Of a DNA stretch of 64,000 nucleotides, positions 6,113 to 63,633 are shown one piece after another. Within the stretch, counting starts at the first letter, position 1, and every line of letters begins with the position of its first letter. The notes under the pieces were generated by a model that was given only the letters and a program-made list of their open reading frames with translations, was not told the origin of the DNA and did not search any database. The stretch is from contig CALUHR010000003.1 in the NCBI GenBank assembly GCA_944320495.1, positions 128,001-192,000 on the forward strand, given 5' to 3'. A program made the translations under genes and the position numbers. The DNA is from Candidatus Methanomethylophilaceae archaeon (GTDB taxonomy: Archaea; Thermoplasmatota; Thermoplasmata; Methanomassiliicoccales; Methanomethylophilaceae).

Positions 6113-6466
6113 ATGATCTCGGACCTGTTCGAGATCCTGATGCTGCTCGGCTTCGCCGCAGCCTGGCCCTTCAACATCATCCGCGCATGGCGCGCCCGCA
6201 CCGCCGTCGGCACCAGCCCTTACTTCATGATCGTCATCGAGTTCGCATACCTCTGCGGCATGATCAGCAAGGCCGTCGTCGCCGACTGGTGGCCGGTGTT
6301 CCCGTTCTACGTGCTCGACTTCTGTCTCGTCGCGGTGGCCCTGATGATATACGTCAGGAACAGGCGGATGGATGCCGCCAAAGGCAGGCCGCGAGACGAG
6401 AAACGACAGTGCCAGCACATCGACGGGACGGAGGGGCCCCTTCGGGGCCCTATCCCCTCCCTTTAA
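6113..6466 (+). CDS. PQ-loop/SemiSWEET-like small membrane protein (inferred true end CGA 6392-6394)
   Basis: GGAGG RBS, three TM helices, AWPFNIIRAWRARTAVGTS motif. The extension past the CGA crosses a GC hairpin. Confidence 0.75.
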   Translation: MISDLFEILMLLGFAAAWPFNIIRAWRARTAVGTSPYFMIVIEFAYLCGMISKAVVADWWPVFPFYVLDFCLVAVALMIYVRNRRMDAAKGRPRDEKRQCQHIDGTEGPLRGPIPSL

Positions 6467-6492
6467 GTTCAGAAGCACGTTGACTACGCCCG

Positions 6493-8292
6493 ATGGAACC
6501 CATTGAGGATATCATATCCAAGGCCGAGGCAGGGGACGTGCAGTCCTGCTTCGAGCTTGGGCAGAGGTTCGCACTCGGCCAGGGCGTCGATGCGGACGAG
6601 TCTGCCGCCTTCGGTTGGTACGTCCGCGCAGCCAAAGGGGGTCATCCCGGGGCCCAGTTCGTCGTAGGCCACTGCCACGCCTACGGCCTGACGGTCCCAG
6701 CTGACCCTGCGGAGGGCTGCATGTGGATGTTCCGCGCATGCATGGAGGGCAACGCGGAGGCGCACAGATGGCTGTCCGACTATTACCAGTCGCACGAGAC
6801 GCCGAAAGACGGCGTCGTCTTCGAATACTTCAGGCAGAGGGCGGGCGCGGAGGATCCCGACGCGTCCTACGTTCTGGGCAGGCTGAAGGAGCTCGCCGTG
6901 GGCACGGAGTTCGACCCGGCGGGCGCTTTCGCGGATTACACCGCGGCCGCCGAGGCAGGTCACAACGCCGCGCGCTGCATGAGGGCCATCTGCGTCCTCA
7001 ACGGCATGGGCACCAGCCGCGACAGGAACCGCGGGGCCGCCATGCTCCAGGAGCAGGCCGAGGCGGGATACGCACCGGCCGCCGAGGAGCTCGGCAGGTG
7101 CTACGAGTACGGCTACGGAGTGGCCAGGGACCGCAGCAAGGCATTCGCGATCTACAGGGAGCTCGCCGATGCGGGAGACGCATCGGGAATGTACAACCTG
7201 GGAAGGGCGTACATGGACGGCATCGGCGTCGAGAAGGACGGACCGGCCGCATACGCATGGTACTCGGCAGCCGCCGGCAGGGGATCCATCTCCGCCGTGT
7301 ACGGGCTCGCCAGGTGCCACATCGGAGCCGTGGGGACCGAGAAGAACCGCGACCTGGGACTGAAGCTGCTCGAGGAGGCCGCCTCCTTCGGACAGACCGA
7401 CGCCATGGTCATGCTCGGACAGCTCAACGCCCGCGGCAAACAGGTCAAGAAGAACACCCAGCTCTCCGCTGCCTGGTTCAAGAGGGCCGCCGACCTGGGC
7501 GACGGATACGCCCAGCTGGTCACCGGCGACAACTACGCCAACGGCACCGGCCTCAAGAAGGACAACAAGATGGCCATCAGGTACTACCTGATGTCCGCCG
7601 CCCACGGCAACGACGTGGCCTGCTTCAACGTCGGCAACGCCTACGCCCTCGGACGCGGAGTCCCGAGGAACGACGAGCAGGCCTTCATCTGGCTCAACAG
7701 GGCCGCCGAGGACAACTACATGAAGGCCCAGTACTCCGTCGCGGAGGCCTACTCCAAGGGACGCGGAGTGAAGAAGGACCTCGCCAAGTCGTTCGCCATC
7801 CACAAGCAGCTCGCGGAGAACGGGTTCGCCAAGTCCCAGTACCATGTCGCCTACGGCTACATGGAGGGAGAGGGCACCGAGAAGGACCCTGCGACGGCCT
7901 ACGGATGGTTCGTCAAGGGAGCCGAGGGTGACGATCCAGTGTGCCTCTACTACGCCGGATACTGCTGCCAGAACGGCCTCGGTACCGAGAAGGACATGGA
8001 CAAGGCCGTCGAGTGGTACACCCGCGCGGCTCAGCTCGGACACATCATGTCCAGGGACATCGTCGAGCGCCTGACCGGAGAGAGGGTCCAGATCAAGGAG
8101 AAGGAGTCCCCGTTCCAGGCCTACCTCAGGTCCGCCGAGAAGGGAGACCCCGACGCCATGTTCATCGTCGGACGCTGCTACCAGGACGGAGTAGGCACCG
8201 AGAAGGACATGGACAAGGCCATGGAGTGGCTCAAGAAGGCCGCTGACAAGGGCAACGCCGCAGCCAAGAGGATGCTGCAGCCCAAGCAGTGA
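6493..8292 (+). CDS. Sel1-like repeat (SLR) protein
   Basis: More than 12 repeats of the type A..G...A...LG..Y..G.G...D...A..WY..AA..G. Confidence 0.95.
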   Translation: MEPIEDIISKAEAGDVQSCFELGQRFALGQGVDADESAAFGWYVRAAKGGHPGAQFVVGHCHAYGLTVPADPAEGCMWMFRACMEGNAEAHRWLSDYYQSHETPKDGVVFEYFRQRAGAEDPDASYVLGRLKELAVGTEFDPAGAFADYTAAAEAGHNAARCMRAICVLNGMGTSRDRNRGAAMLQEQAEAGYAPAAEELGRCYEYGYGVARDRSKAFAIYRELADAGDASGMYNLGRAYMDGIGVEKDGPAAYAWYSAAAGRGSISAVYGLARCHIGAVGTEKNRDLGLKLLEEAASFGQTDAMVMLGQLNARGKQVKKNTQLSAAWFKRAADLGDGYAQLVTGDNYANGTGLKKDNKMAIRYYLMSAAHGNDVACFNVGNAYALGRGVPRNDEQAFIWLNRAAEDNYMKAQYSVAEAYSKGRGVKKDLAKSFAIHKQLAENGFAKSQYHVAYGYMEGEGTEKDPATAYGWFVKGAEGDDPVCLYYAGYCCQNGLGTEKDMDKAVEWYTRAAQLGHIMSRDIVERLTGERVQIKEKESPFQAYLRSAEKGDPDAMFIVGRCYQDGVGTEKDMDKAMEWLKKAADKGNAAAKRMLQPKQ

Positions 8293-8411
8293 TGAAACTC
8301 CAGACGGGGGTCTGCCCCCGTCATCTTTCCACTTTTACAGATACGGATGGGTTCATCCGGAAGAAGATGTGATCCGGGAGCCCCTCGCGGCGGCCCCCGA
8401 GGATGTTTGGT

Positions 8412-10571: not shown

Positions 10572-12112
10572 TCGAGTTCACCCTCTCCCGCGTCGTCATG
10601 TGCGTGTGCGGGATCGCGCTGCTCGCCGCCGTCACCGGGATTCTGGGCGCCGTCAACGACGATTCCGAGAACGGGATGATGGACGGGCTCGCCGAGTCGG
10701 TGGCGGACGTCCTGGATAGGTTCGAGGACTCTGAGACGGACGAGCTGACACTGCGCGGAGTGGAGCTGCTGCCGTCCGATGATCATGTCCTGACGGTGTC
10801 CGGACATGTCGTCACCATAACCTGCGGCGACAGGACGTCCAAGGCTGCCACGTCCTACGGCGGGGAGTTCGAGCTCCGCCGTTCGACCGCGGTCACGCTG
10901 TCGAGATCGGTTCCCGAAGGTCTCGGCGATGTGCCTGACGGCATCGGTGAACACGTCGATCTCCTCGGGCGTGTTGTATATGTACGTGGAGGCGCGGGCG
11001 CTGCCGTCGATCCCGCGGGAGACGTAGAAGGGATGTGCGCAGTGCATGCCGGAGCGGATCATCACGCCGGCCATGCTGTCGAGCATCATGCCGATGTCGT
11101 GGGCGCCGAGGCCGTCGATGTTGAACGAGAACACGCCTCCCCTCAGACGGGGCTCCTCGGGACCGACGACATGCAGGCCGCGGACATCCTCGAGGGACGA
11201 GCATATGCGCTCCATGAGCATGAGGTCCCACCTCTCGACCTCGTCCATGCCTATCTTCGACAGGTATTCCAAGGCCGCCTTGGTGCCGATGATGCCGGCG
11301 TAGTCCTGCAGACCCGCCTCGAACCTGTCCGGTATCGGGGCAAGGTTGACGGAGTCGTAGGTGGCCAGTCCGACGGTGCCGCCTCCGAGCTCCAGCGGGC
11401 GCATCCTCTCCAGGACCTCGCGCCTGCCGTACATCACGCCCATGCCGGACGGCCCGAGCATCTTGTGGACGGACATGCAGTAGACGTCCGCCCCAAGATC
11501 CTCGAGGTCTATCGGCATGTGCGGGGCGGCCTGGGCGCCGTCCACTATGACGATGGCACCGTAGTCGTGGGCGATCTCCGCGACCGCCTTCACCGGGACT
11601 GTGCATCCGGTGACGTTGCCCGCATGCTGAACGGAGACCACCTTCACATCATGGTCCATGCACCTGTGGAAAGATTCCAGGTCGAACGTGCCGTCGGCCC
11701 TCGACTTGGTCATGCGCCTCCTTATCCCCACCGTCTCCTGGAGACGGAGCCAGGGCACATGGTTGGAGTTGTGCTCGGTGTCGGTGGTGACCACCACATC
11801 CCCCCTCTTCAGCGGTACGCCGTATGCCGCCGTGTTGAGTGCGCCGGTGCAGTTGCGCGTGAACGCATAGCAGTCGGGATCCTTCGTGTGGAAGAAGCGG
11901 GCGAGGGTCTCGCGGGTCTCGTCGATGGCGATGGACACGCGTGTCGCCATGGAGTGGACGCTGCGGCCCCCGCAGGCGGGGTAGTCCTCGTAGTACTCGG
12001 TGATCGCACGTATGACGCTGTCCGGCCTGAGGGACTGGCATGCACTGTCCAGATAGATCCCCTTGCCCTTGCGGATGGTCGGGAAGTCCGCACGCACCGA
12101 GTCGACGTCCAT
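10547..12112 (-). CDS. sufS: Cysteine desulfurase, SufS/CsdA family (inferred true end CGA 10907-10909)
   Basis: YLDSACQSLRP, EHNSNHVPW, VDGAQAAPH, SVHKMLGPSG (PLP Lys), RSGMHCAHP, RASTYIYN. Confidence 0.92.
   Translation of the reverse strand: MDVDSVRADFPTIRKGKGIYLDSACQSLRPDSVIRAITEYYEDYPACGGRSVHSMATRVSIAIDETRETLARFFHTKDPDCYAFTRNCTGALNTAAYGVPLKRGDVVVTTDTEHNSNHVPWLRLQETVGIRRRMTKSRADGTFDLESFHRCMDHDVKVVSVQHAGNVTGCTVPVKAVAEIAHDYGAIVIVDGAQAAPHMPIDLEDLGADVYCMSVHKMLGPSGMGVMYGRREVLERMRPLELGGGTVGLATYDSVNLAPIPDRFEAGLQDYAGIIGTKAALEYLSKIGMDEVERWDLMLMERICSSLEDVRGLHVVGPEEPRLRGGVFSFNIDGLGAHDIGMMLDSMAGVMIRSGMHCAHPFYVSRGIDGSARASTYIYNTPEEIDVFTDAVRHIAETFGNRSRQRDRGRTAELELPAVGRGSLGRPVAAGYGDDMSGHRQDMIIGRQQLHSAQCQLVRLRVLEPIQDVRHRLGEPVHHPVLGIVVDGAQNPGDGGEQRDPAHAHDDAGEGELDHADTQTP
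10568..11128 (+). CDS. Membrane-anchored pilin-associated hypothetical protein (end shown is the first in-frame CGA; standard code runs to 12283 antisense through sufS)
   Basis: ATGA coupling and N-terminal TM MIEFTLSRVVMCVCGIALL. The C-terminal end is uncertain. Confidence 0.5.
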
Positions 12113-12206
12113 GACGGTACGATGGGCTTCGCCGTAATAAGACCTGGGTATGCGCCGGAGCGCGGAGTTCGCCATCTTTATAGTCGCGCCATCCATCATC
12201 TCGGAC

Positions 12207-13869: not shown

Positions 13870-14300
13870 CTCAGGCGGGCCACATCACGGTGGTCCACGG
13901 GAACCTCACCGTGGACGTCCCCCGCAGGCTGTTCAGGGGACCGGACTGCGAGATAGACGAGGAGGCCGCCAGACCATTCAGGGACATGGTCAGGGCCAGG
14001 TACCCGTGGGTCTCCGAGAGCTCCATGGACGTCCTGATGAGCAAGGCCCGCAAGGAGATGATCCGCGTCATCGACGAGGAGACCGGAGGCAGGAGCCACA
14101 GCTCCAACCTCGCCCAGCAGGGCAAGCTCGACGAGGCGATTGCCCACATGAGGCTCCACATAGAGCAGGACCCAGAGGATGCGGACTCGTGGTACGCCCT
14201 CGGGAACCTGCTCTGCCAGGCCGGAAGGACCGACGAGGGATACAGGGCGTTCAACAGGGGACGCGAGCTCGCTCAGAAGGCCCAGAGAAGAGGTCGTTGA
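13866..14300 (+). CDS. TPR-containing hypothetical protein
   Basis: ATGA-coupled to pyrK; C-terminal TPR (DPEDADSWYALGNLL). Confidence 0.75.
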   Translation: MTQAGHITVVHGNLTVDVPRRLFRGPDCEIDEEAARPFRDMVRARYPWVSESSMDVLMSKARKEMIRVIDEETGGRSHSSNLAQQGKLDEAIAHMRLHIEQDPEDADSWYALGNLLCQAGRTDEGYRAFNRGRELAQKAQRRGR

Positions 14301-15111
14301 TCGCTTCGACGACCTCCGGGACCGTGGCGCCCCACGGAACGCGCACGACGTCTCCGTCGCGCTCGTGACCCTGCTTCACCTTGCAGCATTTCACTATCGT
14401 CCTCTCCCCCGGAACGACGTAGTCCGCAGGGCAGACGTTTATGAACACGGGAACGTCGGAGCCGTACAGCTCACGGTAGATCCTGCGGGACAGATGGCAT
14501 CCTATCAGCGTGACCTCGCCGTCGACCTCGGGCGCATCGTCCAGGAAGAGGAACGGACGGTCCGCGGTGAGATGGGAGACCCTGCACGGGAACATGACGA
14601 TGGGCGTGAACACATCCGACACACGGTCGGCCATGTCTATGATGCGGTCCTCGGGGATTATTGGATGCTCCACGAAACCGGATGCGAGCGCCCTGCGGAC
14701 GAGAACCCCGAGCTTCGAGGGCGACGGGGGCACGTTGTCCACCACGACGAGGCTCTGCGGCTCCAGGTCCTTCACGTAGCTTATGTGCGAGAACATCCCG
14801 CGGACCACCACGGCCTTGCCCGGATGCCTCGCCTGCACCTCGGCCATGGCCGGGAGGTTGAGGACATCCAGGTCCGGGATCTCCTCGAAAACCGTGTCTT
14901 CGGGCATTGACACGATCTCATAGCCGTCCAGATCCCTGAAGAGACCTGTGCCGGGATGCTTGCGGAGCTCCACCACGGCGTATTCGTCCCCGTTCCTGAG
15001 GACAAGAGCCTCCGTGCGGACGTATGACCTCCAGCCGTCCATCAGGGACGCAACGGATTCGCGGGTCAGCGGCACATCCACATCCTTCATGGAGACATCC
15101 TTGCAGTGCAT
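14251..15111 (-). CDS. Conserved hypothetical Cys-containing protein (possible true end CGA 14269-14271)
   Basis: Coding-like codon bias and GAGGG upstream of MHCKDVS; IGCHLS, NVCP, KCCK motifs. Confidence 0.75.
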   Translation of the reverse strand: MHCKDVSMKDVDVPLTRESVASLMDGWRSYVRTEALVLRNGDEYAVVELRKHPGTGLFRDLDGYEIVSMPEDTVFEEIPDLDVLNLPAMAEVQARHPGKAVVVRGMFSHISYVKDLEPQSLVVVDNVPPSPSKLGVLVRRALASGFVEHPIIPEDRIIDMADRVSDVFTPIVMFPCRVSHLTADRPFLFLDDAPEVDGEVTLIGCHLSRRIYRELYGSDVPVFINVCPADYVVPGERTIVKCCKVKQGHERDGDVVRVPWGATVPEVVEAINDLFSGPSERARVPC

Positions 15112-23147: not shown

Positions 23148-24032
23148 TCAGGGACCCATGGACGTTATCGGAACGACGCAGACGCCGTCCGGACGCCTGT
23201 ACGCGTACCTGGTCATGCCGCATACCACACACAGGACCGACGGCGGGGTTCTCTCCTTCCTGAAGAACTCCTCCATCCTTTTCAGGTTCTCCGCCGCAGC
23301 ATCGATCTGCCCCGCCCCGAGTTTGATCTCGAATGCGCCCCATCTGCCGTCCTCGGCCTCCACCACCGCATCGATCTCCCTCCCACGGCCGTCGCGGTAA
23401 TGGAAGAGCCTGCCGCCCTCATGTTCCGCGTATATCTGGAGGTCATGTTCGCAGAGTGCCTCGAACAGGAATCTCGTGGTTCTGAGGTCGTTCCTGAGCA
23501 TCTGGGCGTTGAGCCTCATGGCCGCCACAGCAAGTGACACGTCTGTCAGATGACGCTTCGACTCTTCCCGATGCGGGCATCGGACCTCACATTCGGACTG
23601 AAACTGGGCATATCATCGATGAGATGCATCCTGTACAGGCAGTTCATGTAGTCCGCGAACGTGTCGTTCGAGATGCTCTCGTTCTCGTACTCCCTCATAT
23701 CCGATTTGATCTTCGAGTTCGAAGCCAAGGTGCTCTCGTTGCGGGCCAGCGAGCGGATCAGCATCGACATCTTCCGTTCGTCACGGCTCCTGCCGTCCAT
23801 ACGGGCCGCGTCCTCCGTAGCATTGTCCACGTACGCTCTGGCCAACATGGAGGGATACCCTCGGGATCCAAGTGCACCGGGCCAGCCCCCGCGAATCGGC
23901 ATGGTTCTCTGCGGTCCATGTCTTACCGCACCAGCGTGGATTCTCGATCGATATTGCCCCGAACGCCTCGAGCATCTCCTCCATCTCCTCGTCGAGAAGT
24001 CTGGGTCTGTTTCCTTTAGGAGTCGGGGTCAT
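23148..24032 (-). pseudogene. Degraded AAA+ ATPase / DUF4143 protein
   Basis: Three frames: PRWCGKTWTA (Walker A), RGGWP...LARNESTL, then FEALCEHDL...EIDAVVE...EIKLG. Frameshifts and a large internal deletion. Confidence 0.8.
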
Positions 24033-27169: not shown

Positions 27170-27514
27170 ATGGAAGCATACAAGATCGGCGTCACGGTGC
27201 CTCTCGGCACCGAGCATGAGATGATGGACACCCTCGACGGATACTTCTCCCCGCTCTATCCCGGATACGACCACGTTTACTCGTGGTGGGAGACCGAGGG
27301 GAGCTGGAGACCCCTGGAGGGGTCGCACCCGCACCAGGGGGAGATCGGCAGGATCGAACGCGCCCGCGAGGTGCGCATAGAGTTCGCGGTACATGCCCGG
27401 GACGCGCCCGCGGTGGTCCGCCGCATCGCGGAGGTCCATCCCTTCGAGGAACCCGCGATAGACGTGATCCCGCTGATCCCGTGGAAGGACGTCGCTGTGC
27501 TGGACGGTAGTTGA
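27170..27514 (+). CDS. YqfO/Nif3-insert-like (PII/CutA-fold) protein
   Basis: GSWRPLEGSHPHQGEIG...EVHPFEEPAIDVIPL. Confidence 0.8.
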   Translation: MEAYKIGVTVPLGTEHEMMDTLDGYFSPLYPGYDHVYSWWETEGSWRPLEGSHPHQGEIGRIERAREVRIEFAVHARDAPAVVRRIAEVHPFEEPAIDVIPLIPWKDVAVLDGS

Positions 27515-28052
27515 ACAGGTTGTCGAAGGACTTCTGCATCCTGTGGATCTTGAGGCTCTGCTTCCTGTACGCGAGCTCCCCGTCGTCGATCAGTCCCATG
27601 GCGTTGTACCTGTCCAGGACCGCGAAGGCACCGTCGTAGTCGCCGTCGACGCCGACCATGATGTCGATTAGCCTGTTCCTGCATGAGAGCCTGCCCTCGG
27701 GCGGGAACGATGCGGAGACGGCTGGATACAGATCCAGATTCCTCAGGCACATGGCCTTGGCGTCGGCGAACCTGTCGGAGCCGAAGAGGCCCTCGATGAG
27801 ACCCTCCGTCGCCCTGAACCTGGAGACGTCGTCGAGCTCGGCTGCCTCGAGGAACTCCCCAGCTGTCACGGCGAGTTTGTAGTTGTGGTCGTCGACCGCG
27901 CGGGACATCAGGTCCGTGAGGAATCCGAGCTGGGAGGACGTGTCTATGCCGTCAACGTACCTGCGAACCCTGACCCTGTCCTGGGAGGACAGGCCGGAGT
28001 ACCATCCGTCAAGCCCCGCCTGGGTGACCTGAGAGGGGATCTCATCTGCCAT
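27192..28052 (-). CDS. Helical hypothetical protein (inferred true end CGA 27492-27494)
   Basis: Coding-like through ...SFDNLFNYRPAQ. The remainder is the antisense shadow of the YqfO-like gene. Confidence 0.7.
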   Translation of the reverse strand: MADEIPSQVTQAGLDGWYSGLSSQDRVRVRRYVDGIDTSSQLGFLTDLMSRAVDDHNYKLAVTAGEFLEAAELDDVSRFRATEGLIEGLFGSDRFADAKAMCLRNLDLYPAVSASFPPEGRLSCRNRLIDIMVGVDGDYDGAFAVLDRYNAMGLIDDGELAYRKQSLKIHRMQKSFDNLFNYRPAQRRPSTGSAGSRLSRVPRRDGPPRCGGPPRARPGHVPRTLCAPRGRVRSCRSPPGAGATPPGVSSSPRSPTTSKRGRIRDRAGRSIRRGCPSSHARCREAP

Positions 28053-40986: not shown

Positions 40987-40990
40987 TAGG

Positions 40991-41917
40991 ATGCCGGTCA
41001 AGATCCCGGACGACCTGCCGGCAGCGGCCGTGCTGGAATCCGAGAACATATTCGTGATGTCCGCCAGGAGGGCGGACACCCAGGACATCCGCCCGCTGGA
41101 GATCCTCATCCTGAACCTCATGCCCACCAAGGTCGAGACCGAGATCCAGATCCTCAGGTGCCTGAGCAACAGCCCGCTCCAGACGAACGTCACGCTGCTC
41201 CAGATGTCCTCTCACGAATCGAAGAACACCTCCGCGGAGTACCTGGAACGCTTCTACAAGACCTTCGACGACGTCAGAGAGATGAAGTTCGACGGGATGA
41301 TCATCACCGGGGCCCCCCTCGAATCGATAGAATACGAGGACGTGGACTACTGGCCGGAGTTCTGCGAGATCATGGACTGGACGCTCACCAACGTCTGCTC
41401 CACCCTCTACATCTGCTGGGGCGCCCTCGCCGGGCTGTACTACCACTACGGGATACCGAAGCACTCCATGGACTCGAAGGTCTCAGGGATCTTCGAGCAC
41501 CGCGTGCTCATACCGAACGAGCCCATAGTCAGAGGCTTCGACGACCGCTTCTTCATGCCTCAGTCGAGGCACTCGGAGGTCAGGGCGGAGGACATCGCGG
41601 CGAACCCGCATCTGCACATCATCTGCGCCTCCGAGGACTCCGGCGTCGCCGTGGTCCAGTCGGAGATGAACCAGACGTTCATCACGGGACATCTGGAGTA
41701 TGATGCCGCGACGCTGTCGTACGAGTACGAGAGGGACCTGAACGCCGGCAAGAACCCGCACGTGCCGGACAACTACTTCGAGGACGACGACCCGCACAAA
41801 GACCCGGTGGTCAGGTGGAGGGCCCATGCCACGCTCTTCTACACCAACTGGCTCAACTACTGCGTGTACCAGGAGACCCCGTACGACATCGACGAGATCG
41901 GCAGGCGCCGATCGTGA
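40991..41917 (+). CDS. metA: Homoserine O-acyltransferase, MetA family, acetyl-type residue (inferred end CGA 41909-41911)
   Basis: LNLMPTK, ITGAPLE, ICWGA (catalytic Cys), PQSRH, GHLEYD, WLNY. Confidence 0.95.
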
Positions 41918-43173
41918 AAACCAGGCGGTCCGAGGGATCGGACCGCCGCCTCCTTTCGATGTGTGACCTCATGCCAGCGCATCGGCAGAATTCCTCGGAG
42001 ATCCCCATGGGACCATGAGAAGGGCGCTGCAATCCGGGATCGCTGGCTGACCACCCTCGGGTTCACGAGCTTCCCGACGAGGGCGTCCCTGACGAACATG
42101 TTTATGCCCGAGTAGTCGCCGTCCGAATCCAGGAGCTTCTGGACCTCGTCGGCTATGTGTGTGAACACCTCGCGGAAGATCCTGCATGAGTCCCCGTCGG
42201 TGTTCTCGAGGCCTACCTCGTGGTAGGCGTCCATGCTGCACCCTCCGTTGCAGAACCTGTAGATGGGACACGAGGCGCACTTCTCCCTGCGGGCGACGGA
42301 ACCCGCCAGGATCCTACGGAAGCCCTCAGAATGGAAGGCCTCGTCGAGGCTGGAGATGGAATTCACATTGCCCATGCAGAACTCTGGCGGGCAGGCCTTG
42401 GCACACGGGTATATCGAACCGTCGGGGTTGACGCAGACCCACTTGGTGAGACAGGATGTGTGGGCGCAGTCCGAGGGCGTGGGATCGCCCAGATAGTTGA
42501 GGACGTAGAGGTAGTGCGGGATCAGGGGGACCTTGCTGCCGGCGTCATGGAGCCATGTGTCGAAGGCCTCTATGCTGCCCCTGATGTACTCGTCCGGATC
42601 CGGGACGGTGCCGTTGCATCTGGCGCATCCCGCCGGAATCACCGGGGACATGGAGATGTTCGTCCCCCTGTCGCGATAGTACTCGTAGATCTCCCTCTGC
42701 TTCAGCGCCGTCTCGCGGGAGATTGTGGCGCTGACGGAGTACTTGTTATCCTTGTCGGATAGCATCGAGATGGCCTTCTCGGGATCCAGCTCCCTCAGAA
42801 CATTGTTGTAGGGACCTTCGCACGACACGCCGACGTTGATCATCTTCTCGCGGCAGTATGCCATGAGACGGCGGTTGAGGAGCGTCCCGTTGGTCTGTAT
42901 GGTGTTCCCCACACGGAAGGAGGACTTTCCGAAGTGCTTCTCCTCCAGCTCGATGGCCTTCTTGTAGAAAGACATCGGGACGGTGAGCGGCTCCCCGCCG
43001 TGCCATATGAACCAGGCCGCCTGGTACTCGGTGGCGACCATGCCCATGAGACGGTCCAGCGTCTCAAGGCTCATCTCTCCCCGGACGCGCTCGTCCGGGG
43101 CATGATAGCAATGGCTGCAGGATTCGTTGCAGAAAAGGGTCGGTTTTATGACGACCGATATGTACGGCTTCAT
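41857..43173 (-). CDS. Radical SAM/SPASM protein (inferred true end CGA 42040-42042)
   Basis: [20 protein letters not shown]; SPASM CAHTSC..., [17 protein letters not shown]. Confidence 0.92.
41924..41947. terminator. Perfect 10-bp hairpin between convergent metA and radical SAM genes
   Basis: GGCGGTCCGA-GGGA-TCGGACCGCC. Confidence 0.6.
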
Positions 43174-43190
43174 GGCCGGCTTCCGCCGGC

Positions 43191-43499
43191 TCAGAAGGGC
43201 CAGTAGGTCCAGACGCCGTTGAATCCATTGGTGGCGTAGCAGCAGCAGATGCAGCAGACCACGACGCAACCGACGACGCAGGCGTGCCATCCCATACTGT
43301 TGCAGTATCCCTTCTCGCTGCAGCAGCAGTAGTCGCACTTGGAGTCTCCGCCGTGGTCCTCGTCGGCCGCCTTGTCGAAGCGCTCGTCATGGGTGTGCTC
43401 CTGGGGGAGTCCCTCCATCGCGAACGCGATGAAAGCCGAGGGGGACTGGCTCTCGTAAATCGCTGTCAGGTTGTCTACGGATTCCACGTCGTAAGCCAT
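43191..43499 (-). CDS. Cys-rich small protein (possible radical SAM substrate/precursor)
   Basis: Acidic N-terminal half, then CDYCCC...C...CVVGCVVVCCICCC; directly upstream of the radical SAM gene. Confidence 0.7.
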   Translation of the reverse strand: MAYDVESVDNLTAIYESQSPSAFIAFAMEGLPQEHTHDERFDKAADEDHGGDSKCDYCCCSEKGYCNSMGWHACVVGCVVVCCICCCYATNGFNGVWTYWPF

Positions 43500-43627
43500 T
43501 GCTCAATCACCTACCACTGCTGGCTGGTTGAGCTTCCGAACCTATATTGCGTATTTATGACTTTTCGGAACGACCGTACATCAGACAGCCCAGCGGAACC
43601 CTTATCCGCACGATACGTTCACGGTGC

Positions 43628-43729
43628 ATGGACGACAGGACGCTCGGATACATCCTGATCGCGGCGGTCTTCGCCGTGGCACTGTATGCCTCGTTCCTCA
43701 TGGCCCGGCGGATCCCGCCCAAGGAGCGA
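43628..43729 (+). CDS. 33-aa single-TM protein ending at CGA (MDDRTLGYILIAAVFAVALYASFLMARRIPPKE)
   Basis: Clean TM helix with a positive-inside tail. The standard code would run 1.3 kb out of frame over the DUF5685 gene. Confidence 0.55.
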
Positions 43730-43784: not shown

Positions 43785-44693
43785 ATGTTCGGATACACCA
43801 CCCCAGCTTACGGAAGGCTCTCCCCGACCGACAACCGCACCTACCGCAGGTACTACTGCGAGGGATGCCATCAGCTCAGGGACGGCTACGGCCTCACCGG
43901 GACCGGGACGGTGAACTACGACATGACGTTCAACACCATCCTCCTCGAGGGGCTGGTCTGCGACTGCCCCGACTTCGGGCCCACGACCCGCAGGATCTGC
44001 GTACTAGACTCCCCCAAGGCCGACTCCAGGCTTATGCACGAGATGGCCGCCTACACCCTCATACTCACGAAATGGGAGCTCTACGACGACGAGACCGACA
44101 TGCCGTCGATAAAGACGAAGCTCATCTCCCTGACTCTGAACCGCGCCATACAGAAGGCCGTCTCCGAGTTCCCGGAGTACGACAGGATGGTCGGGGAGGG
44201 ATTCATGCGCCTCCGCGACATGGAGCTGGCGGGATGCAGGGACGCTCTCTCCATGGGAAGGGAGTTCGGCAGGGGCCTGACGGGACCGCTCGAGGGCATC
44301 GCCGGCGACTTCTACACGGAGGACCTGGGCGACGTCTTCACCCAGCTGACCGCCGCGGTGTACGTCATGGATACGATAGACGACCTGGACGACGACTTCA
44401 TGGACGGTACCTACAACCCGCTGCTCCCCGAGACGGGATACGTCAACGCGCGCACCCTCGTCGACAGGGACGTCATGAGGTTCACGTCCCTCGTGTCCGA
44501 GGCGGTGGGATCCCTCCAGTCCGCCTACTCCAAGGTGCGCCCCTCCATGCGCGGGAACGTCTCCCTCTGCGACAACATCGTCTACTACGGCATACCGGAA
44601 TCGGCCAAGCGCGTCATAATGGGCGATGCGAAGGCCAAGGCCAGCGTCAAGAACATCCTGTCGAACAGGAAGGACAGGCTGGCATCGGAATGA
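43785..44693 (+). CDS. DUF5685 family protein (isoprenoid-synthase-like Asp-rich motifs)
   Basis: MFGY...YRRYYCEGCHQL..GYG...NYDMTF; DDETD and DTIDDLDDDFMDG. Confidence 0.8.
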   Translation: MFGYTTPAYGRLSPTDNRTYRRYYCEGCHQLRDGYGLTGTGTVNYDMTFNTILLEGLVCDCPDFGPTTRRICVLDSPKADSRLMHEMAAYTLILTKWELYDDETDMPSIKTKLISLTLNRAIQKAVSEFPEYDRMVGEGFMRLRDMELAGCRDALSMGREFGRGLTGPLEGIAGDFYTEDLGDVFTQLTAAVYVMDTIDDLDDDFMDGTYNPLLPETGYVNARTLVDRDVMRFTSLVSEAVGSLQSAYSKVRPSMRGNVSLCDNIVYYGIPESAKRVIMGDAKAKASVKNILSNRKDRLASE

Positions 44694-44941: not shown

Positions 44942-45643
44942 TTATCGGTTTCCGTCGGCCGTGAGACGGTCCAGCATCCATGACATCCCGCGCGCCATCC
45001 TGCCGGCCGGATCGGTGAAGTGGTTGCCGGGATTCATCTCCAGTACCACATCGGACACGTTCGGATCGCTCCCGTACGCCGTCCTGACGGATCTTATAGC
45101 ATCGCCGACCGATGCCATCACCGGGTTCCTCGCCTTCTCCTCCTTGGTCCCGAGGCTCAGATACACGTATGAACCCTCAGGGGCGCCGCGTCCGGCCGCG
45201 TACTCGGTCCATCCCGGATACCATACGGACGGGGAGCATGCCACCGCCCCTCTGAACAGGCCGGTCTCGTGGAACGCCCAGAGGGAGAACAGGCCAGCCA
45301 GCGAGTATCCGCATACGGCGAGAGGGACATCGTCCCCCGCCTCCAGAGCGTCCCTCGCCCGAGGGACCCATTCGTCCCTCAGACGCTCGAGGGTCTCCCC
45401 TCCGCCTCCCGTGAAAGCCCTCGCTCCCATGACGGGTTCGGATGACCAGGGCGTGAGCCCCGAATCCCAGTCCCCCACCCTGCATTCGACGATCGCGAAG
45501 CGCGGATCCGTCGCAGACAGCCTCACCTTCCGGATCACATCGTCCGCGATGCCCGCCTCATGATCCCCGGTCATCCAGAACAGCACCGCGTCGGGACCCG
45601 GGTCCCCCGTGATGCGGATGTCGTCCGCCCAGACTCCGTCCAT
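44942..45643 (-). CDS. Alpha/beta-hydrolase (putative esterase)
   Basis: LTPW, GYSLAG nucleophile elbow, SPSVWYPGW, SLGTKE, GNHF; ends AAC CGA TAA. Confidence 0.88.
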   Translation of the reverse strand: MDGVWADDIRITGDPGPDAVLFWMTGDHEAGIADDVIRKVRLSATDPRFAIVECRVGDWDSGLTPWSSEPVMGARAFTGGGGETLERLRDEWVPRARDALEAGDDVPLAVCGYSLAGLFSLWAFHETGLFRGAVACSPSVWYPGWTEYAAGRGAPEGSYVYLSLGTKEEKARNPVMASVGDAIRSVRTAYGSDPNVSDVVLEMNPGNHFTDPAGRMARGMSWMLDRLTADGNR

Positions 45644-45700
45644 TGAGATCGCCTACGCACCGCAGTTCATTGATTAAATATGGAATGGGGTTGGGGGTGC

Positions 45701-46267
45701 ATGGTCGTCAGGGTAGCGTACATGGGAATCCCGGGCTCCAACTCCGAGCAGGCGGCGACTGAGCTCGCCGGCGCCATGGGCTGGGACGTCTTCGTACTCA
45801 TTCCTAAGGAGGACTCCAGGAACACTGTTGCAGCCCTCGATTCCGGGGAGGCGGACTACGGTGTCGTCGCATCCCGCAACGTCACCGCCGGACCCGTAGA
45901 GGAGACTGAGAGGTCCCTCGAGGGGAGGGGTGACATCGAGATCCTCAGGGCCCTCTGGCTGCCCATCCACCACTGCGTCTTCGTTAAGCATCCCGGGGTG
46001 AGCGTCAGACGCGTCGCCTCCCACATCCAGGCCCTCCTGCAGACGAAGGAGCACCTCAATATGCTCTATCCGGACTCCGACAGGGTCGAGGTATCCGACA
46101 CGGCCGTCGCGGCCGAGATGCTCTCGGACGGCAGGCTCCCCGAGGACACCGCGGTGGTCTGCCGCCGCAACGCAGGGGAGATGTTCAGGCTCCACCTCGT
46201 CCACGAGAACATCGAGGACATGGAGGGGAACATGACGGAGTTCGAACTCCTGAGGCTCAGACGATGA
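45701..46267 (+). CDS. pheA: Prephenate dehydratase domain protein (no ACT domain)
   Basis: VAYMGIPGSNSEQAA, LPIHHC, SHIQALLQT, DTAVAA, NMTEF; ends AGA CGA TGA. Confidence 0.8.
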   Translation: MVVRVAYMGIPGSNSEQAATELAGAMGWDVFVLIPKEDSRNTVAALDSGEADYGVVASRNVTAGPVEETERSLEGRGDIEILRALWLPIHHCVFVKHPGVSVRRVASHIQALLQTKEHLNMLYPDSDRVEVSDTAVAAEMLSDGRLPEDTAVVCRRNAGEMFRLHLVHENIEDMEGNMTEFELLRLRR

Positions 46268-46950
46268 TCGCCGAACAGATAGAGAAGGACGCCCGCCGTC
46301 TGGACGAGATCATCGCCGGATACAACAAAGAGGCGAACCGCGCCAAGCAGTCCAGGGATGAGTTCCACAGACGCGCCTCCGAGCTCGCGGACCGCAGGGA
46401 CAAGCTCCAGAAGAAGGCCAAGTCCCTCTCCGCGGAGGCTGCCGTCTACAAAGCTCGCAGGGACGACGCCAACCTCACCGCCAAGGAATGCCGCGCCCGC
46501 AGGGACGAGTGGAACGACCGCGGGGCCAGAATGCGCGCGTCCGGAGGCCTCGGCGACATCGGCGAGTGCAAATCGCAGGCGAACAGCTGGCACCAGAAGG
46601 CGGTCAAGGCCTCCGAGGACGCCAACACCGCCCACGAGAAGATGCATCAGCTCTACGACGAGGCGGACAGGCTTAGGGCGGAGGCGCAGAAGTGCCACGA
46701 ACAGTACCTCGACTGCAAAAGGGGCGCCGACGCGGAGCACACGAGATACATCCAGGCCGTCAGGAGCATAGAGCGCGTGAGGGAGAACCTCCCCGATCGA
46801 GGGCGCAGCATCACGTCCCCGCGCCTTATCGCCATGAAACGGTACTCGCGCATCCTCCCGGTCTTCGGGTCCGGGAGCTCGAGGATGCCTGTCTCCCTGA
46901 AGTTCGATTTCTCGAGACATCTGCCGGAAGCCTCGTTCTCGGTATCGTGA
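46264..46950 (+). CDS. Archaeal coiled-coil protein (inferred true end CGA 46798-46800)
   Basis: Heptad-rich RDE..RRASELADRRD, ANTAHEKM, ADAEHTRY. Confidence 0.75.
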   Translation: MIAEQIEKDARRLDEIIAGYNKEANRAKQSRDEFHRRASELADRRDKLQKKAKSLSAEAAVYKARRDDANLTAKECRARRDEWNDRGARMRASGGLGDIGECKSQANSWHQKAVKASEDANTAHEKMHQLYDEADRLRAEAQKCHEQYLDCKRGADAEHTRYIQAVRSIERVRENLPDRGRSITSPRLIAMKRYSRILPVFGSGSSRMPVSLKFDFSRHLPEASFSVS

Positions 46951-47348
46951 CGGGCCTGGATCCACTCGTAGCTGGTGGTGTCGAACACATAGTTCACCAC
47001 CGCCCTCAGGGCCTCGGTCATGTAACCGCGGTCCCAGTACCGCTGAGAGAGGCAGTATCCTATCTCACAGTAGCCCTTCTCCGGATGCTCCCTCACCACG
47101 GTTATGCTGCCTATCGGCTCGTCGCTCCCGCGCAGCGTTATGCACCAGTCCATGGTGCCGCTCGCGTATTCTGACACCCACTCGGCTATCGTCCGGCGGC
47201 TCACCTCCGGATCTGGATGGGTCTCCCACGACAGGAATCTGGTGACGTCCGGGTCGGACATCCAGTTCCTGAACGCGGCCTCGGCATCGTCCTCCCTGAA
47301 CCTCCTCAGTTGGAGGCGCTCGGTCAGGAGGCGCGCCGTACCCCTCAT
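46653..47348 (-). CDS. GNAT N-acetyltransferase, RimJ/RimL family (inferred true end CGA 46797-46799)
   Basis: LLTERLQLRRF, EIGYCLSQRYWDRGYMTEAL, NEASGRCLEK. Confidence 0.9.
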   Translation of the reverse strand: MRGTARLLTERLQLRRFREDDAEAAFRNWMSDPDVTRFLSWETHPDPEVSRRTIAEWVSEYASGTMDWCITLRGSDEPIGSITVVREHPEKGYCEIGYCLSQRYWDRGYMTEALRAVVNYVFDTTSYEWIQARHDTENEASGRCLEKSNFRETGILELPDPKTGRMREYRFMAIRRGDVMLRPRSGRFSLTRSMLLTAWMYLVCSASAPLLQSRYCSWHFCASALSLSASS

Positions 47349-47387: not shown

Positions 47388-47990
47388 TCAGACATCGGAC
47401 ATCCGTATGCCGGGCATTAGAAAAATGGATGCGTCCCATCGGATCGACGGAACACATCCTGGAATTTGATCCGGCCTCCGGGATCGCACCCGGGGCTCGG
47501 TACCGGGGCTCCTGCGATGGATTATCCCCCGGACGACGCTGTACGGGATGTCCATGGACAAGGATATGTCCAGGCATCCGCGGCCTCTGCGGTACTCCCT
47601 CATGACGTCGTCCTCCATCAGCATGGACATCTCCCTCGGAGGTATCACGACCTCCGGCTCGATGTCCCACAGACGGGTTCCGCAGAACGGGCAGCGCTTC
47701 GGCAAATGGGAGCTCTTGGAGTCCCAGGAGACGCCGCACCTCAGGCACCTGTACGACTTCAGGGGGACGTTCCACTGATGGGATCCGCAGGACGGGCAGC
47801 GCTTGGGCTTGCCGTCATGGGAGTTCCATGTGTGGCCGCATCTTACGCAGGTGACCTTCAGGTCCGGATTGTTCCATTTGACCGAACGGCAGCGTGGGCA
47901 ACGCTTGGGTGGCTGTCCCCTGCGGGGCATCCACTCATAGGAGCACCTGTGACACACCAATCTGGATTCTGGGGCGAACTGTGGATGCAT
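47388..47990 (-). CDS. Triple zinc-ribbon protein with C-terminal HTH (inferred true end CGA 47484-47486)
   Basis: Three CxRC..W...PKRCPxC units, then GCLDISLSMDIPYSVVRGII. Confidence 0.75.
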   Translation of the reverse strand: MHPQFAPESRLVCHRCSYEWMPRRGQPPKRCPRCRSVKWNNPDLKVTCVRCGHTWNSHDGKPKRCPSCGSHQWNVPLKSYRCLRCGVSWDSKSSHLPKRCPFCGTRLWDIEPEVVIPPREMSMLMEDDVMREYRRGRGCLDISLSMDIPYSVVRGIIHRRSPGTEPRVRSRRPDQIPGCVPSIRWDASIFLMPGIRMSDV

Positions 47991-54769: not shown

Positions 54770-54779
54770 CCGGACCGCT

Positions 54780-56232: not shown

Positions 56233-56310
56233 GGACGGGTGGCCTAGTCTGGATATGGCGGCAGCCTCCTAAGCTGCAAGCCGGGGGTTCGAATCCCCTC
56301 CCGTTCGCCA
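56233..56310 (+). tRNA. tRNA-Arg(CCT)
   Basis: GGACGGG/CCCGTTC acceptor, GCAGC-CTCCTAA-GCTGC anticodon arm, GGTTCGAATCC, encoded CCA. Confidence 0.95.
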
Positions 56311-62249: not shown

Positions 62250-62358
62250 TGGTTCACACCTGTCCTCCCGCGGGTCCGACGGACTCGGCGATGGTCGTAC
62301 GAACCGACGCCGGGGATGACGCTCCTGCACGCATGTACCCCCTCACGGAAACTGACGG

Positions 62359-63633
62359 TCAATGGTACCACCCGCTTAAAAGGTTGCTACTGGCACTTCT
62401 TCGTTTTAGGAGGTTTTCGGGCGGGGAGGACCCCGCCCGCGGGCATCGCCCTCGGAGCTGCTCCAACACCTCCCTCAGGAGGCCGGTGAACACATCCTTC
62501 TGCGCATCCGTGAGGATTAGCGGGGGTATGAGACGGATTGTCCCTCCATGGGCGACGTTTATCAGGACGCCGTTCTCGCGACAGTACCTCTGGACGTGGG
62601 CGGCCGTCTCCTTGGAGTCCATCTCCACCCCGATGATGAGCCCGCATCCGCGGACCTCCCTAATCCTTGGGGAGTCGATGGCCTTCAGATCGGCCATCCA
62701 GCGGGCGCCCATCTCCTTGACATGGGGCACGATCCCATCGCGCTTCATGATGTCGATGGTCGCGCATCCTGCGGCGCACACCAGCGGGTTCCCTCCGAAC
62801 GTGGTGCCATGAGACCCGGGCGTCATCACCTTGGAGATCTCATCGGTGGAGTTCACCGCACCGATCGGCACACCTCCGCCGAGGGCCTTCGCCATGGTCA
62901 TGATGTCTGGAACGACACCGTAGTTCTGTATGCCGTACCATTCGCCGGTGCGGCCTATCCCGGTCTGCACCTCGTCGGTGATCATTAGCGTACCGTTGTC
63001 GGTGCACAGGTCGCGGACGCCCTTGAAGAACTCGACGGTGGCCGTGTGGACGCCGCTCTCCCCCTGTATCGGTTCTACGATGAGCGCTGCGACGTCCCGT
63101 GTCATGAGCTCCTTCACCGATTCCAGGTCACCGAAGCGGAAATACCCGTACGAATGGGCGATAAGCGGCTCAAAGGACCTCTGGATGGACTCCTGGCCCG
63201 TGGCGCCCATGGCGGCGGACGTTCTCCCGTGGAAACCGTCGAAGGCCGCGATGACCTTGGAGCGTCCTGTGTAGCGGACCGCCAGCTTCAGTGCCCCTTC
63301 GTTGGCCTCCGCCCCACTGTTGACGAACAGCGTGCGGTCCATGCCGTCGGGCGTGATCGATGCGACCCTCTCGGCCAGATCCGCCTGCTCCCCCACGTAG
63401 TAGAGGTTGGAGACGTGAGCCATCTTGGCTGCCTGCGCCTGGACCGCCGCGACCCAGTCTGGATGCGCGTATCCGAGAGCGTTGACGGCTATGCCGGCCA
63501 CCAGGTCGAGGTACTCGCGCCCATCGCTCCCGTGGAGGTAGCAGCCGCTGCCGTGTGTAAAGGACAGCGGTATGCGGCCGTAGTTCTGGAACAGATAACG
63601 GTCGCTCTTCTCCTTGACTGATTCGAAACCCAT
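62359..63633 (-). CDS. argD: Acetylornithine aminotransferase (inferred true end CGA 62452-62454)
   Basis: YLDLVAGIAVNALG, NSGAEANE, FHGRT, EPIQGESG, DEVQTGIGRTG, AKALGGG, TFGGNP. Confidence 0.95.
   Translation of the reverse strand: MGFESVKEKSDRYLFQNYGRIPLSFTHGSGCYLHGSDGREYLDLVAGIAVNALGYAHPDWVAAVQAQAAKMAHVSNLYYVGEQADLAERVASITPDGMDRTLFVNSGAEANEGALKLAVRYTGRSKVIAAFDGFHGRTSAAMGATGQESIQRSFEPLIAHSYGYFRFGDLESVKELMTRDVAALIVEPIQGESGVHTATVEFFKGVRDLCTDNGTLMITDEVQTGIGRTGEWYGIQNYGVVPDIMTMAKALGGGVPIGAVNSTDEISKVMTPGSHGTTFGGNPLVCAAGCATIDIMKRDGIVPHVKEMGARWMADLKAIDSPRIREVRGCGLIIGVEMDSKETAAHVQRYCRENGVLINVAHGGTIRLIPPLILTDAQKDVFTGLLREVLEQLRGRCPRAGSSPPENLLKRRSASSNLLSGWYH

Follow-up and report, generated by a model that had tools for sequence, protein, structure and literature searches.

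To our knowledge, changes of the genetic code from sense codon to stop have been described only in mitochondria. These include AGA/AGG in vertebrates, UCA in Scenedesmus and UUA in Thraustochytrium (NCBI tables 2, 22, 23). In bacteria, the gene for release factor RF2 (prfB) is autoregulated via an in-frame UGA, with a +1 frameshift and a Shine-Dalgarno-like stimulator. Termination at CGA has been reported for yeast eRF1/eRF3, which competes with tRNA-Arg at this codon, and does so more strongly in the UGA-biased mutants L123F/R/Y (Wada and Ito 2018, PMC7379694). Among archaea, Genetic Code 34 has been proposed for Methanomethylophilus alvi and its relatives, with all TAG codons encoding pyrrolysine and two stop codons (Kivenson et al., bioRxiv 10.1101/2024.09.30.615893). 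Two Njordarchaeales assemblies read CGG as Trp and have no CGA in known domains; the possibility that this codon is a stop was raised, but could not be tested in that preprint (Melnykov, bioRxiv 10.64898/2026.04.02.715157). Searches of the literature for a stop function of CGA in Methanomassiliicoccales gave nothing relevant.

The DNA analysed here (the window) is a stretch of 64,000 nucleotides from a gut methanogen of the Methanomethylophilaceae, belonging to a Methanoprimaticola-type genus. A sequence-only reading had proposed that CGA functions as a stop codon, a candidate for an archaeal code or termination mechanism not described before, and had named 14 positions at or within two codons of plausible gene ends. 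An in-frame CGA is present at all 14. With CGA set neutral, the codon log-odds score is positive upstream of each site and drops to zero or below downstream of it. As gene ends the sites differ: 44685 is not supported, 41909, 44945 and 46262 are ambiguous, and 43727 is plausible only. Among the approximately 62 genes in the window, the coding signal stops at an in-frame CGA in 13. The sites and one neighbouring gene are:

6101..6394, plus strand: small membrane protein, 97 aa; CGA at 6392-6394, next standard stop 23 codons on
10907..12112, minus strand: SufS-like cysteine desulfurase, 401 aa; CGA at 10907-10909 (codon 402)
12150-13112, plus strand: DHO_dh gene (Pfam), the true neighbour of SufS
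14269..15111, minus strand: DUF7714 gene, 280 aa; CGA at 14269-14271, coding score drops afterwards
23558..23848, minus strand: DUF4143 fragment, 96 aa; CGA at 23558-23560, profile 3-73/160 only
27492..28052, minus strand: 186-aa gene with no Pfam family; CGA at 27492-27494
40805..41911, plus strand: homoserine O-acyltransferase (HTS; metA); CGA at 41909-41911, then TCG TGA
42040..43290, minus strand: radical SAM/SPASM gene; CGA at 42040-42042, 60-codon tail if read as Arg
43547..43729, plus strand: short transmembrane ORF, 60 codons; CGA at 43727-43729
44685..44687, minus strand: CGA without support as a gene end, antisense to the gene at 43785-44693 (plus strand)
44945..45643, minus strand: esterase-like gene, 232 aa; CGA at 44945-44947, TAA directly after (tandem terminator)
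45680..46264, plus strand: prephenate dehydratase (pheA), PDT profile 1-177/181; CGA at 46262-46264, TGA directly after
46264..46800, plus strand: DUF7121 coiled-coil gene, 178 aa; CGA at 46798-46800
46797..47348, minus strand: GNAT acetyltransferase, 183 aa; CGA at 46797-46799
47484..47990, minus strand: zinc-ribbon protein gene; CGA at 47484-47486
62452..63633, minus strand: ArgD-like class-III aminotransferase, 393 aa; CGA at 62452-62454 (codon 394)

In five of these genes a Pfam domain finishes shortly before the CGA. The Aminotran_3 profile (5-402/403) has its last residue at 389 of ArgD, Aminotran_5 (1-371/371) at 388 of SufS, Acetyltransf_3 (1-138/138) at 151 of the GNAT protein and HTS (1-298/298) at 360/370, while the DUF7714 profile (6-277/280) extends to residue 275/280. 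Read as Arg, CGA would add tails of 119 codons to SufS and 99 codons to the 186-aa gene, and in public databases ArgD appears in a 424-aa read-through form. The gene caller joined SufS to a shadow frame, where Pfam instead shows the plus-strand DHO_dh neighbour. The convergent GNAT and DUF7121 genes have a TCGA palindrome (46797-46800) common to their CGA ends, and the end of the prephenate dehydratase gene overlaps the ATG of the next gene (CGATGA).

The three ambiguous sites cannot alone separate Arg from stop, because a standard stop follows 0-2 codons later. At 43727 the coding score is 0.38 upstream and -0.53 downstream, and a search for a protein family of this short ORF found none. The CGA at 44685 is unsupported as a gene end because its frame looks non-coding and is antisense to a called gene; the upstream score is just 0.13, and five more in-frame CGA lie upstream. 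The DUF4143 fragment, a weak extra case that was added by the gene caller and absent from the earlier list, is probably a broken gene.

Orthologues, compared solely by the position of their stop, end where these genes have CGA. This holds for all seven window genes compared. In the congener G015, TGA lies at exactly this position in SufS and the DUF7121 gene, at the same position in the 186-aa gene, at most one residue away in the radical SAM/SPASM gene and within approximately one residue in the small membrane protein; for the zinc-ribbon gene an exact match is found in G013. ArgD orthologues have TGA or TAA at most two residues from the CGA position in 19 of 19 cases. Genome-wide, a standard stop of the orthologue falls within three residues for 47% of CGA-ended genes versus 45% of TGA-ended controls. 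Extension of tblastn matches was dropped as a test of where homology ends, since matches overrun real TGA codons equally often (39% versus 35%) because the neighbouring DNA is conserved.

Gene calls from a self-trained codon model give about 390-410 CGA-ended genes among 1,645, approximately a quarter of the genome. An earlier hand check of about 24 genes had found no internal CGA; this now extends to 60 complete window genes (17,483 codons), a count that is circular for a gene caller that treats CGA as stop. Their 1,068 Arg codons comprise 553 AGG, 349 CGC, 72 AGA, 60 CGT and 34 CGG. Across the genome, an in-frame CGA is preceded by 40 coding codons in 391 cases, and the coding signal persists downstream in only 4% of these; for CGT, CGG, AGA and GGA it persists at 57-87%, and CGT, CGG and AGA act as sense codons in the same scan. 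The GC3 profile falls alike at the two codons: it is 0.86 before and 0.55 after CGA (n=392), and 0.89 before and 0.60 after TGA (n=953). Downstream log-odds, with CGA neutral, are -0.48 for CGA, -0.51 for TGA and +0.2 to +0.5 for sense codons. The CGA pattern is far beyond chance.

Only 10 in-frame CGA in 1.77 Mb have a coding signal on both sides, of which at least four are gene junctions by Pfam and one more is a SIS/HAD junction. Within a Pfam domain CGA occurs only in the release factor gene aRF1 (R78) and in one Flavodoxin_4 gene. CGA-ended genes make up 38% of the lowest quartile of codon adaptation and 9% of the top quartile (p=4e-29), and backup stops are commoner after CGA ends (tandem OR 3.0, p=0.0014).

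Under the standard code, CGA would be a very rare Arg codon, with the tails translated or the gene ends mis-called. Although a tRNA-Arg(UCG) gene exists, Arg78 of aRF1 is encoded by CGA and at three window sites a genuine stop follows within 0-2 codons, such rarity should be general rather than confined to approximately 400 gene ends and two domain-internal sites. Furthermore, the next TGA or TAA follows CGA after a median of 53 codons (51 after TGA), and these tails carry no coding signal and run through neighbouring genes; orthologues stop at the CGA position. The distribution of CGA positions already contradicts this explanation, which we regard as highly improbable. CGG is not read as Trp here: 254 CGG codons align with R at 48% and K at 16% of orthologue positions, like other Arg codons.

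CGA in the two other frames of genes is close to expectation (9,315 observed versus 10,085 expected, and 35,584 versus 36,910), and the CGA effect is therefore translational. This bears on the suggestion that CGA might be turned into UGA at gene ends by site-specific C-to-U editing of mRNA. One transition would be enough, the listed sites are often CGAT and T follows CGA in 54% of cases. A frame-blind editor, however, would hit the 44,899 out-of-frame CGA in genes, which are not depleted, and would change an amino acid at approximately 9,300 of them (xCG followed by A), which disfavours editing of that frame-blind kind. Editing targeted to approximately 400 sites would need a guide system, and none was seen; it would also leave unexplained both the purge of in-frame CGA and the CGA retained in aRF1. 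We know of no mRNA C-to-U editing system in archaea, and editing seems very unlikely.

Frame specificity also speaks against errors in which TGA was written as CGA during sequencing or assembly. The sequence does come from a metagenome bin of 14 contigs, and a GATC context is seen at some sites, but 149 TGATC stops are intact, the same 424-aa read-through ArgD ORF occurs in four other assemblies, and the CGA at codon 78 of aRF1 is common to more than 35 genomes from different studies. The basecalling artefact against which the sequence-only reading had warned is excluded by independent public assemblies and dozens of related genomes, and we consider an artefact of this kind extremely improbable.

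The genome encodes PylS, with a score of 260.8 bits that exceeds the cut-off. Use of TAG is close to nil: 23 called genes hold 29 in-frame TAG, in part artefacts of shadow frames. The GC3 profile had suggested 335-854 in-frame TAG with a two-sided coding signal, but a sense reading of TAG was rejected, 828 of the 854 being antisense to real genes (NNC followed by TAC, read backwards). An exchange of CGA and TAG in the sequence itself was likewise rejected: the window agrees with a deposited public protein and with four other assemblies, and the TAG-sense reading failed.

The purge of CGA extends to the whole genus and to four further genera of the family (g14, g15, g16, g20). Counts in 7 to 8 Mb-scale samples of relatives gave 0-2 internal CGA per 80-200 kb for 14 members of the genus and for these four genera; internal CGA is common in g10, g11, g12, g17, g18 and family f7, CGA being an ordinary Arg codon in five other genera. 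The related genomes are non-independent samples. Some congeners have purged CGA yet scarcely use it as a stop (0-5% of ends), and for these an unassigned codon fits as well as a stop.

The sequence-only reading had expected tRNA-Arg(UCG) to be absent, but the source genome carries the gene (G000:C13:413317-413390). It always has a mismatched 31-39 pair. Purifying selection acts on it, the stems showing compensatory changes in at least 12 congeners; in g14, g16 and g20, which are also purged, the anticodon stem of this tRNA has a normal appearance. A cognate decoder is unexpected for a stop codon and counts against the stop reading. The gene was sought and not found in the congeners G005-G008, G015, G077, G089, G094, G097 and G099, of which G008, G015 and G077 are complete. 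Within the genus, the share of genes ending at CGA is 0.32, 0.10, 0.19, 0.02, 0.12, 0.00 and 0.22 in members with the tRNA and 0.00, 0.05, 0.04, 0.02, 0.02, 0.04, 0.14 and 0.00 in those without it, excluding G092:C4 for its nonsensical counts (a wrongly trained model or a foreign contig). As a correlate of CGA use the tRNA was rejected, this being a weak, overlapping trend among related genomes.

The single aRF1 gene contains exactly one in-frame CGA, at the conserved Arg78. At this codon CGA is found in 35 of 35 distinct sequences of at least 82% identity, i.e. at genus level, in a conserved context of rare codons (GCT/TCT CGA CTN AAA/AAG) with no frameshift. Exactly one CGA is present in aRF1 of every purged genome examined, lying at codon 11 or 25 in g14, g15, g16 and g20, whereas CGA-sense genera have 0-5 at scattered sites. 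CGA at a conserved Arg of an essential gene, which had been named as evidence against termination, thus does occur, but the exception is unique. It strengthens the stop idea because it is unique, conserved and located in the release factor gene itself. Together with the flavodoxin gene it indicates that CGA can sit in a needed reading frame, and CGA is not a pure stop, because tRNA-Arg(UCG) is present and aRF1 has CGA at a conserved Arg.

The proposed inspection of aRF1 motifs gave no sign of altered specificity: CGA-purged and CGA-using genera do not differ in the GT-loop, NIKS and YxCxxxF regions, and no residue was found that separates the two groups. A changed release factor specificity is therefore without sequence support. 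The genus-specific residues A17D, S142C, F250V and T270I were rejected as markers of the trait, since they vanish when all purged genera are compared with CGA-using ones. All aRF1 here read Y-R-C-D-S, and all those of the order have Arg at the position of yeast eRF1 L123.

The lack of a diagnostic aRF1 substitution would fit a CGA that is unassigned, or "hungry", rather than specifically recognised by aRF1, and where ribosomes stall and are rescued (by aPelota/aEF1-alpha/ABCE1, peptidyl-tRNA drop-off or unspecific aRF1 action) in a way that mimics termination. Consistent with this, G008, G015, G077 and others without detectable tRNA-Arg(UCG) barely use CGA at all, and CGA ends are concentrated in poorly adapted genes, often with backup stops. 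In the source genome, however, the cognate tRNA is present and a quarter of the genes depend on CGA, SufS, ArgD and MetA among them. Such a load is hard to square with stall-and-rescue, which usually triggers decay of mRNA or peptide, and the one CGA conserved in aRF1 suggests that the release factor itself reads the codon. We consider this explanation unlikely.

At the level of sequence, in-frame CGA is purged, sits where orthologues have TGA or TAA, is affected in a frame-specific manner and shows this pattern across five genera. Coding signal, tail lengths, orthologue stops and frame specificity support the core claim that CGA is a terminator. We therefore favour, with good confidence, the reading that CGA is no longer an ordinary Arg codon and that ribosomes end translation there, if somewhat leakily, giving a stop set of TGA, CGA and rare TAA. 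The single aRF1 would release the peptide at CGA, which differs from UGA in the first base only, probably less efficiently than at TGA. Residual decoding by the atypical tRNA-Arg(UCG) or by near-cognate tRNA-Arg(CCG/GCG), all of which would insert Arg, might be exploited at the one conserved CGA in the aRF1 gene. Abundant aRF1 would then cut off its own production, much as in RF2 autoregulation, which the in-frame CGA resembles, but by way of read-through. More tentatively, and slightly short of an even balance in our judgement, we suggest that this clade of gut Methanomethylophilaceae puts CGA to dual use, as a stop via aRF1 by default and as Arg at one context-marked site in aRF1, where the factor would gauge how active it is relative to Arg-tRNA and reduce its production accordingly, and that this arose together with the new stop codon.

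If true, this would extend sense-to-stop changes beyond organelles, to a cellular genome, for the first time, and the aRF1 codon would give archaeal release factors their first proposed autoregulatory recoding site. With approximately 400 genes ending at an Arg codon, such a cellular lineage would demonstrate that large genomes can undergo changes of this kind. The family offers a graded natural series, from genera in which CGA is Arg, through purged genera, to species using it for up to a third of stops. For these methanogens, common in human and animal guts, publicly available gene calls would contain false C-terminal tails or fused genes, such as the 424-aa ArgD. Methanomethylophilus, the source of widely used PylRS/tRNA pairs, falls in the CGA-purged group.

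Compared with the described systems, the likeness to the mitochondrial changes is that a sense codon of the standard code has gone from gene interiors and marks gene ends. Those changes, however, affect tiny organellar genomes with a handful of genes, whereas here the cell is free-living, with approximately 1,650 genes of which approximately 400 use CGA; the codon is also a different one, and its cognate tRNA gene is still present. The finding ties in with the experimental result that eRF1 reads CGA: the yeast factor is homologous, and aRF1 of the order carries Arg at the L123 position, but what is minor misreading in reporters (PMC7379694) would here be how a quarter of the genes normally end. 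The two Njordarchaeales assemblies are likewise archaeal and without CGA in conserved domains, yet they belong to another phylum, read CGG as Trp and lack tRNA(UCG); in the present genome CGG falls at Arg positions and tRNA(UCG) is retained. Genetic Code 34 concerns the same family, and PylS and a near absence of TAG are found here also, but CGA is mentioned 0 times by Kivenson et al. and a third terminator would have been gained. Loss of UAG as a stop in pyrrolysine-using archaea may have been the setting in which a UGA-biased aRF1 acquired CGA, suggesting a route to a new stop. As with RF2, the aRF1 gene holds an in-frame copy of the codon that its product is proposed to read, at a site and in a nucleotide context conserved across species; unlike RF2, the site involves no change of frame and would need read-through inserting Arg.

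In-frame CGA has been removed from the genes of this Candidatus Methanomethylophilaceae archaeon (1.77 Mb in 14 contigs, 61% G+C) and marks the ends of about one quarter of them, in a pattern that is frame-specific and clade-wide. Based on aRF1 (archaeal release factor) matches, the relatives of the organism are Methanomassiliicoccales of the family Methanomethylophilaceae, and its genus includes Candidatus Methanoprimaticola sp. MG2 (91% aRF1 identity). AGG and CGC account for most Arg codons in the genome. Every codon with coding signal over the 40 codons upstream was examined for continuation of that signal, a test that does not assume CGA to be a stop; a cruder variant used GC3. The downstream score was -0.48 after CGA (n=391) and -0.51 after TGA (n=1,102), versus +0.20 to +0.51 after CGT, CGG, AGA, TCA, GGA and CTA. 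The next TGA or TAA lies a median of 53 codons beyond CGA, compared with 51 beyond TGA, so CGA is not simply an Arg codon adjoining the true stop. With CGA treated as a stop, 1,645 genes are called, covering 86.6% of the genome and ending at TGA (1,180), CGA (412) or TAA (53).

In the whole genome, only 10 in-frame CGAs are flanked both upstream and downstream by coding signal, and at least 4 of these are, by Pfam, junctions of two genes sharing one frame:

FAA_hydrolase and PurS
two FMN_red genes
Ank and TPR
SIS (GmhA-like) and HAD phosphatase (GmhB-like), G000:C13:194143 (contig 13 of this genome), minus strand

The last pair is divided only by CGA, with no start codon between it and the AVFIDRDD motif, and may represent a read-through fusion or an unusual start. 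Among the 10, CGA lies within a Pfam domain only in aRF1 and in one Flavodoxin_4 gene (G000:C8:55685, plus strand; residue 137, inside a profile match of 10-152 of 155 in one stretch). The latter gene could have been acquired recently or be a pseudogene; alternatively, its CGA could be read through.

In the two other frames of genes CGA occurs at expectation (9,315 observed versus 10,085 expected, and 35,584 versus 36,910). Whatever removes it therefore acts on the reading frame, i.e. on translation, which excludes restriction, methylation and frame-blind editing as the cause. Editing of the mRNA, which the sequence-only reading had entertained, is contradicted by the same result, out-of-frame CGA not being depleted.

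That reading had listed 14 sites in the window, out of at least 14, with CGA at the plausible end of a gene or within two codons of it. An in-frame CGA is indeed present at every site, and codon log-odds (CGA, TAG, TGA and TAA set to zero) are positive before each and zero or negative after it. The one at 44685 (minus) is not credible as a gene end, that at 43727 (plus) closes a short ORF, and those at 41909, 44945 and 46262 are uninformative singly because a real stop follows 0-2 codons later. Pfam domains are complete ahead of CGA in GNAT, HTS and DUF7714, and likewise in ArgD and SufS:

ArgD, CGA at 62452, minus strand: CGA is codon 394; Aminotran_3 profile 5-402 of 403, match finishing at residue 389
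SufS, CGA at 10907, minus strand: CGA is codon 402; Aminotran_5 profile 1-371 of 371, match finishing at residue 388

Our gene caller places 62 genes in or across the window, ending at TGA (47), CGA (13) or TAA (2). The supposed lack of internal CGA holds (0 among 1,068 Arg codons in 60 complete genes), a count that is circular, as the caller treats CGA as a stop; weight is therefore placed on the genome-wide and orthologue tests. At 46797-46800 a palindromic TCGA ends two convergent genes, DUF7121 (plus) and GNAT (minus), whose CGA terminators thus overlap by 2 bases. A DUF4143 gene at 23148-23902 (minus) appears broken: a 96-aa piece matching profile positions 3-73 of 160 ends at CGA, and a separate ORF of 126 aa comes after it. 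Between 52000 and 60000, G+C is 0.54-0.57, versus 0.61-0.63 elsewhere; this stretch surrounds two tRNA genes (53324-53395, minus; 56233-56307, plus) and may be a foreign island.

Orthologues bear out the short gene ends. For ArgD, TGA or TAA lies no more than 2 residues from the CGA in 15 members of the genus and in 4 genomes from other families. The same distance applies to all seven CGA-ended window genes with orthologues, which were drawn from a largely syntenic stretch of the relative G015 and pieces of three others (G004, G008, G013). The converse was also seen, one G015 gene ending at CGA two residues ahead of its orthologue's TGA. When all genes of the genome were compared with about 1.2 Mb from twelve relatives, 45 of 96 CGA-ended pairs (47%) finished within 3 residues of the orthologue's standard stop, as did 126 of 277 TGA-ended controls (45%). 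CGG aligns with Arg, like the remaining Arg codons. A standard code with translated tails is contradicted by these shared stops and by the loss of coding signal after CGA.

The public protein collection holds ArgD, encoded on the 203,312-base contig, as a 424-aa read-through form (window 62362-63633, minus) whose last 31 residues are a false tail; it has no entry for the 393-aa form. Annotation of the lineage is systematically affected by such C-terminal tails. Four other assemblies have 424-aa variants with Arg at the CGA position and tails 91-100% identical. A sequencing or assembly artefact is contradicted by these independent assemblies, by the 149 genes that still end in TGATC, and by the single CGA in aRF1, present in over 35 genomes produced by many different studies.

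Self-trained models were run on samples of 27-200 kb from related genomes. In fourteen members of the genus, internal-type CGA numbers 0-2, versus 30-110 for CGT, and CGA ends 0-32% of genes. Four further genera of the family are likewise purged (CGA with continuing signal over all CGA: g20, Methanogranum-like by aRF1 similarity, 0/2; g14, 0/5; g15, 1/6; g16, Methanomethylophilus-like, 0/0). CGA is an ordinary sense codon in genera g10 (7/9), g11 (12/17), g12 (16/19), g17 (10/13) and g18 (42/60), and in another family, f7 (3/5). One congener sample, G092:C4:1-60000, was left out for nonsensical counts (161 internal CGA, only 7 TGA ends); it also has a match of the tRNA(UCG) type. Either its model had settled on shadow frames or the contig does not belong in the bin.

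The expectation that tRNA-Arg(UCG) would be absent proved wrong: ARAGORN finds all five Arg tRNAs, this one at G000:C13:413317-413390 (plus). It is kept in most congeners, with compensatory anticodon-stem changes. Its 31-39 pair is always mismatched in the genus (A.A here; C.A or U.C in congeners), leaving only four anticodon-stem pairs; the stem is regular in purged genera g14, g16 and g20. The body is unlike those of other families, and its nearest match is the genome's own tRNA-Arg(GCG), 11 kb away. A pattern of UCG anticodon loop plus T arm did not find it in G005, G006, G007, G008, G015, G077, G089, G094, G097 and G099, three of which are single-contig genomes. tRNA-Arg(CCG), whose presence had been anticipated, is in every genome checked.

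The sequence-only reading had counted a CGA inside an essential gene against a stop function, and one exists in aRF1 itself. The single aRF1 gene, the genome's only release-factor gene (410 aa; G000:C2:85936-87165, minus, outside the window), has one in-frame CGA, codon 78, at the conserved Arg in the ..IAA-R-LKTY.. stretch that follows NIKS. In 35 of 35 distinct sequences of aRF1 with an identity of 82% or higher this codon is CGA, and its neighbours are codons otherwise rare in these genomes, GCT or TCT on the 5' side and CTN followed mostly by AAA on the 3' side. In two sequences at about 82%, the CGA is instead codon 11 or 25. Other conserved Arg columns vary among AGG, AGA, CGC and CGT. 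Each aRF1 examined from other purged genera has exactly one CGA, at codon 11 (g20, g15) or 25 (g14, g16); those of CGA-using genera have 0-5, at scattered positions. We infer that CGA is read by aRF1. Residual Arg decoding might survive through tRNA(UCG), or through third-position misreading by tRNA-Arg(CCG) or tRNA-Arg(GCG), and full-length aRF1 would need it at its own CGA; together these would form a negative feedback loop.

CGA ends are commoner where codon adaptation is poor, closing 38% of genes in the bottom quartile and 9% in the top one (Mann-Whitney p=4e-29). TGA or TAA is the very next codon after 20 of 361 CGA ends versus 19 of 984 TGA ends (odds ratio 3.0, p=0.0014), and lies within five codons after 53 and 90, respectively (p=0.005). 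Of terminal CGAs, 54% are followed by T; at CGA78 of aRF1 the next base is always C and the preceding one always T. Codon adaptation, backup stops and flanking bases fit a context-sensitive terminator weaker than TGA. The main rival to reading by aRF1 is that CGA is an unassigned codon resolved by rescue rather than specific recognition, and sequence alone does not tell the two apart.

A plausible history for reading by aRF1 would begin in a pyrrolysine-using lineage that no longer needed UAG as a stop. Its aRF1 might then have leaned to UGA, with some reading of CGA; genes would have been purged of CGA, and TGA-to-CGA transitions at gene ends, being nearly neutral, could have built up unequally among species. 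PylS is encoded at C9:67854-68522 (260.8 bits, above cut-off), and TAG is almost unused (29 in-frame occurrences, spread over 23 of the 1,645 genes and including some shadow-frame artefacts), in line with the pyrrolysine lineages covered by the “Code 34” proposal. CTAG is strongly avoided throughout the genome.

Among the papers searched, none links CGA, stop codons and Methanomassiliicoccales, and neither the Codetta survey (PMC8629427) nor the Code 34 preprint (10.1101/2024.09.30.615893) mentions CGA in this lineage. In a 2026 preprint (10.64898/2026.04.02.715157), the domains of two Njordarchaeales assemblies are reported to lack CGA, and a stop function is suggested there without being tested. 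No aRF1 residue separates purged from CGA-using genera in the sequence comparison. All carry Y-R-C-D-S, the Arg of which occupies the position of L123 in yeast eRF1, where substitution by F, R or Y yields a UGA-biased factor with more termination at CGA (PMC7379694).
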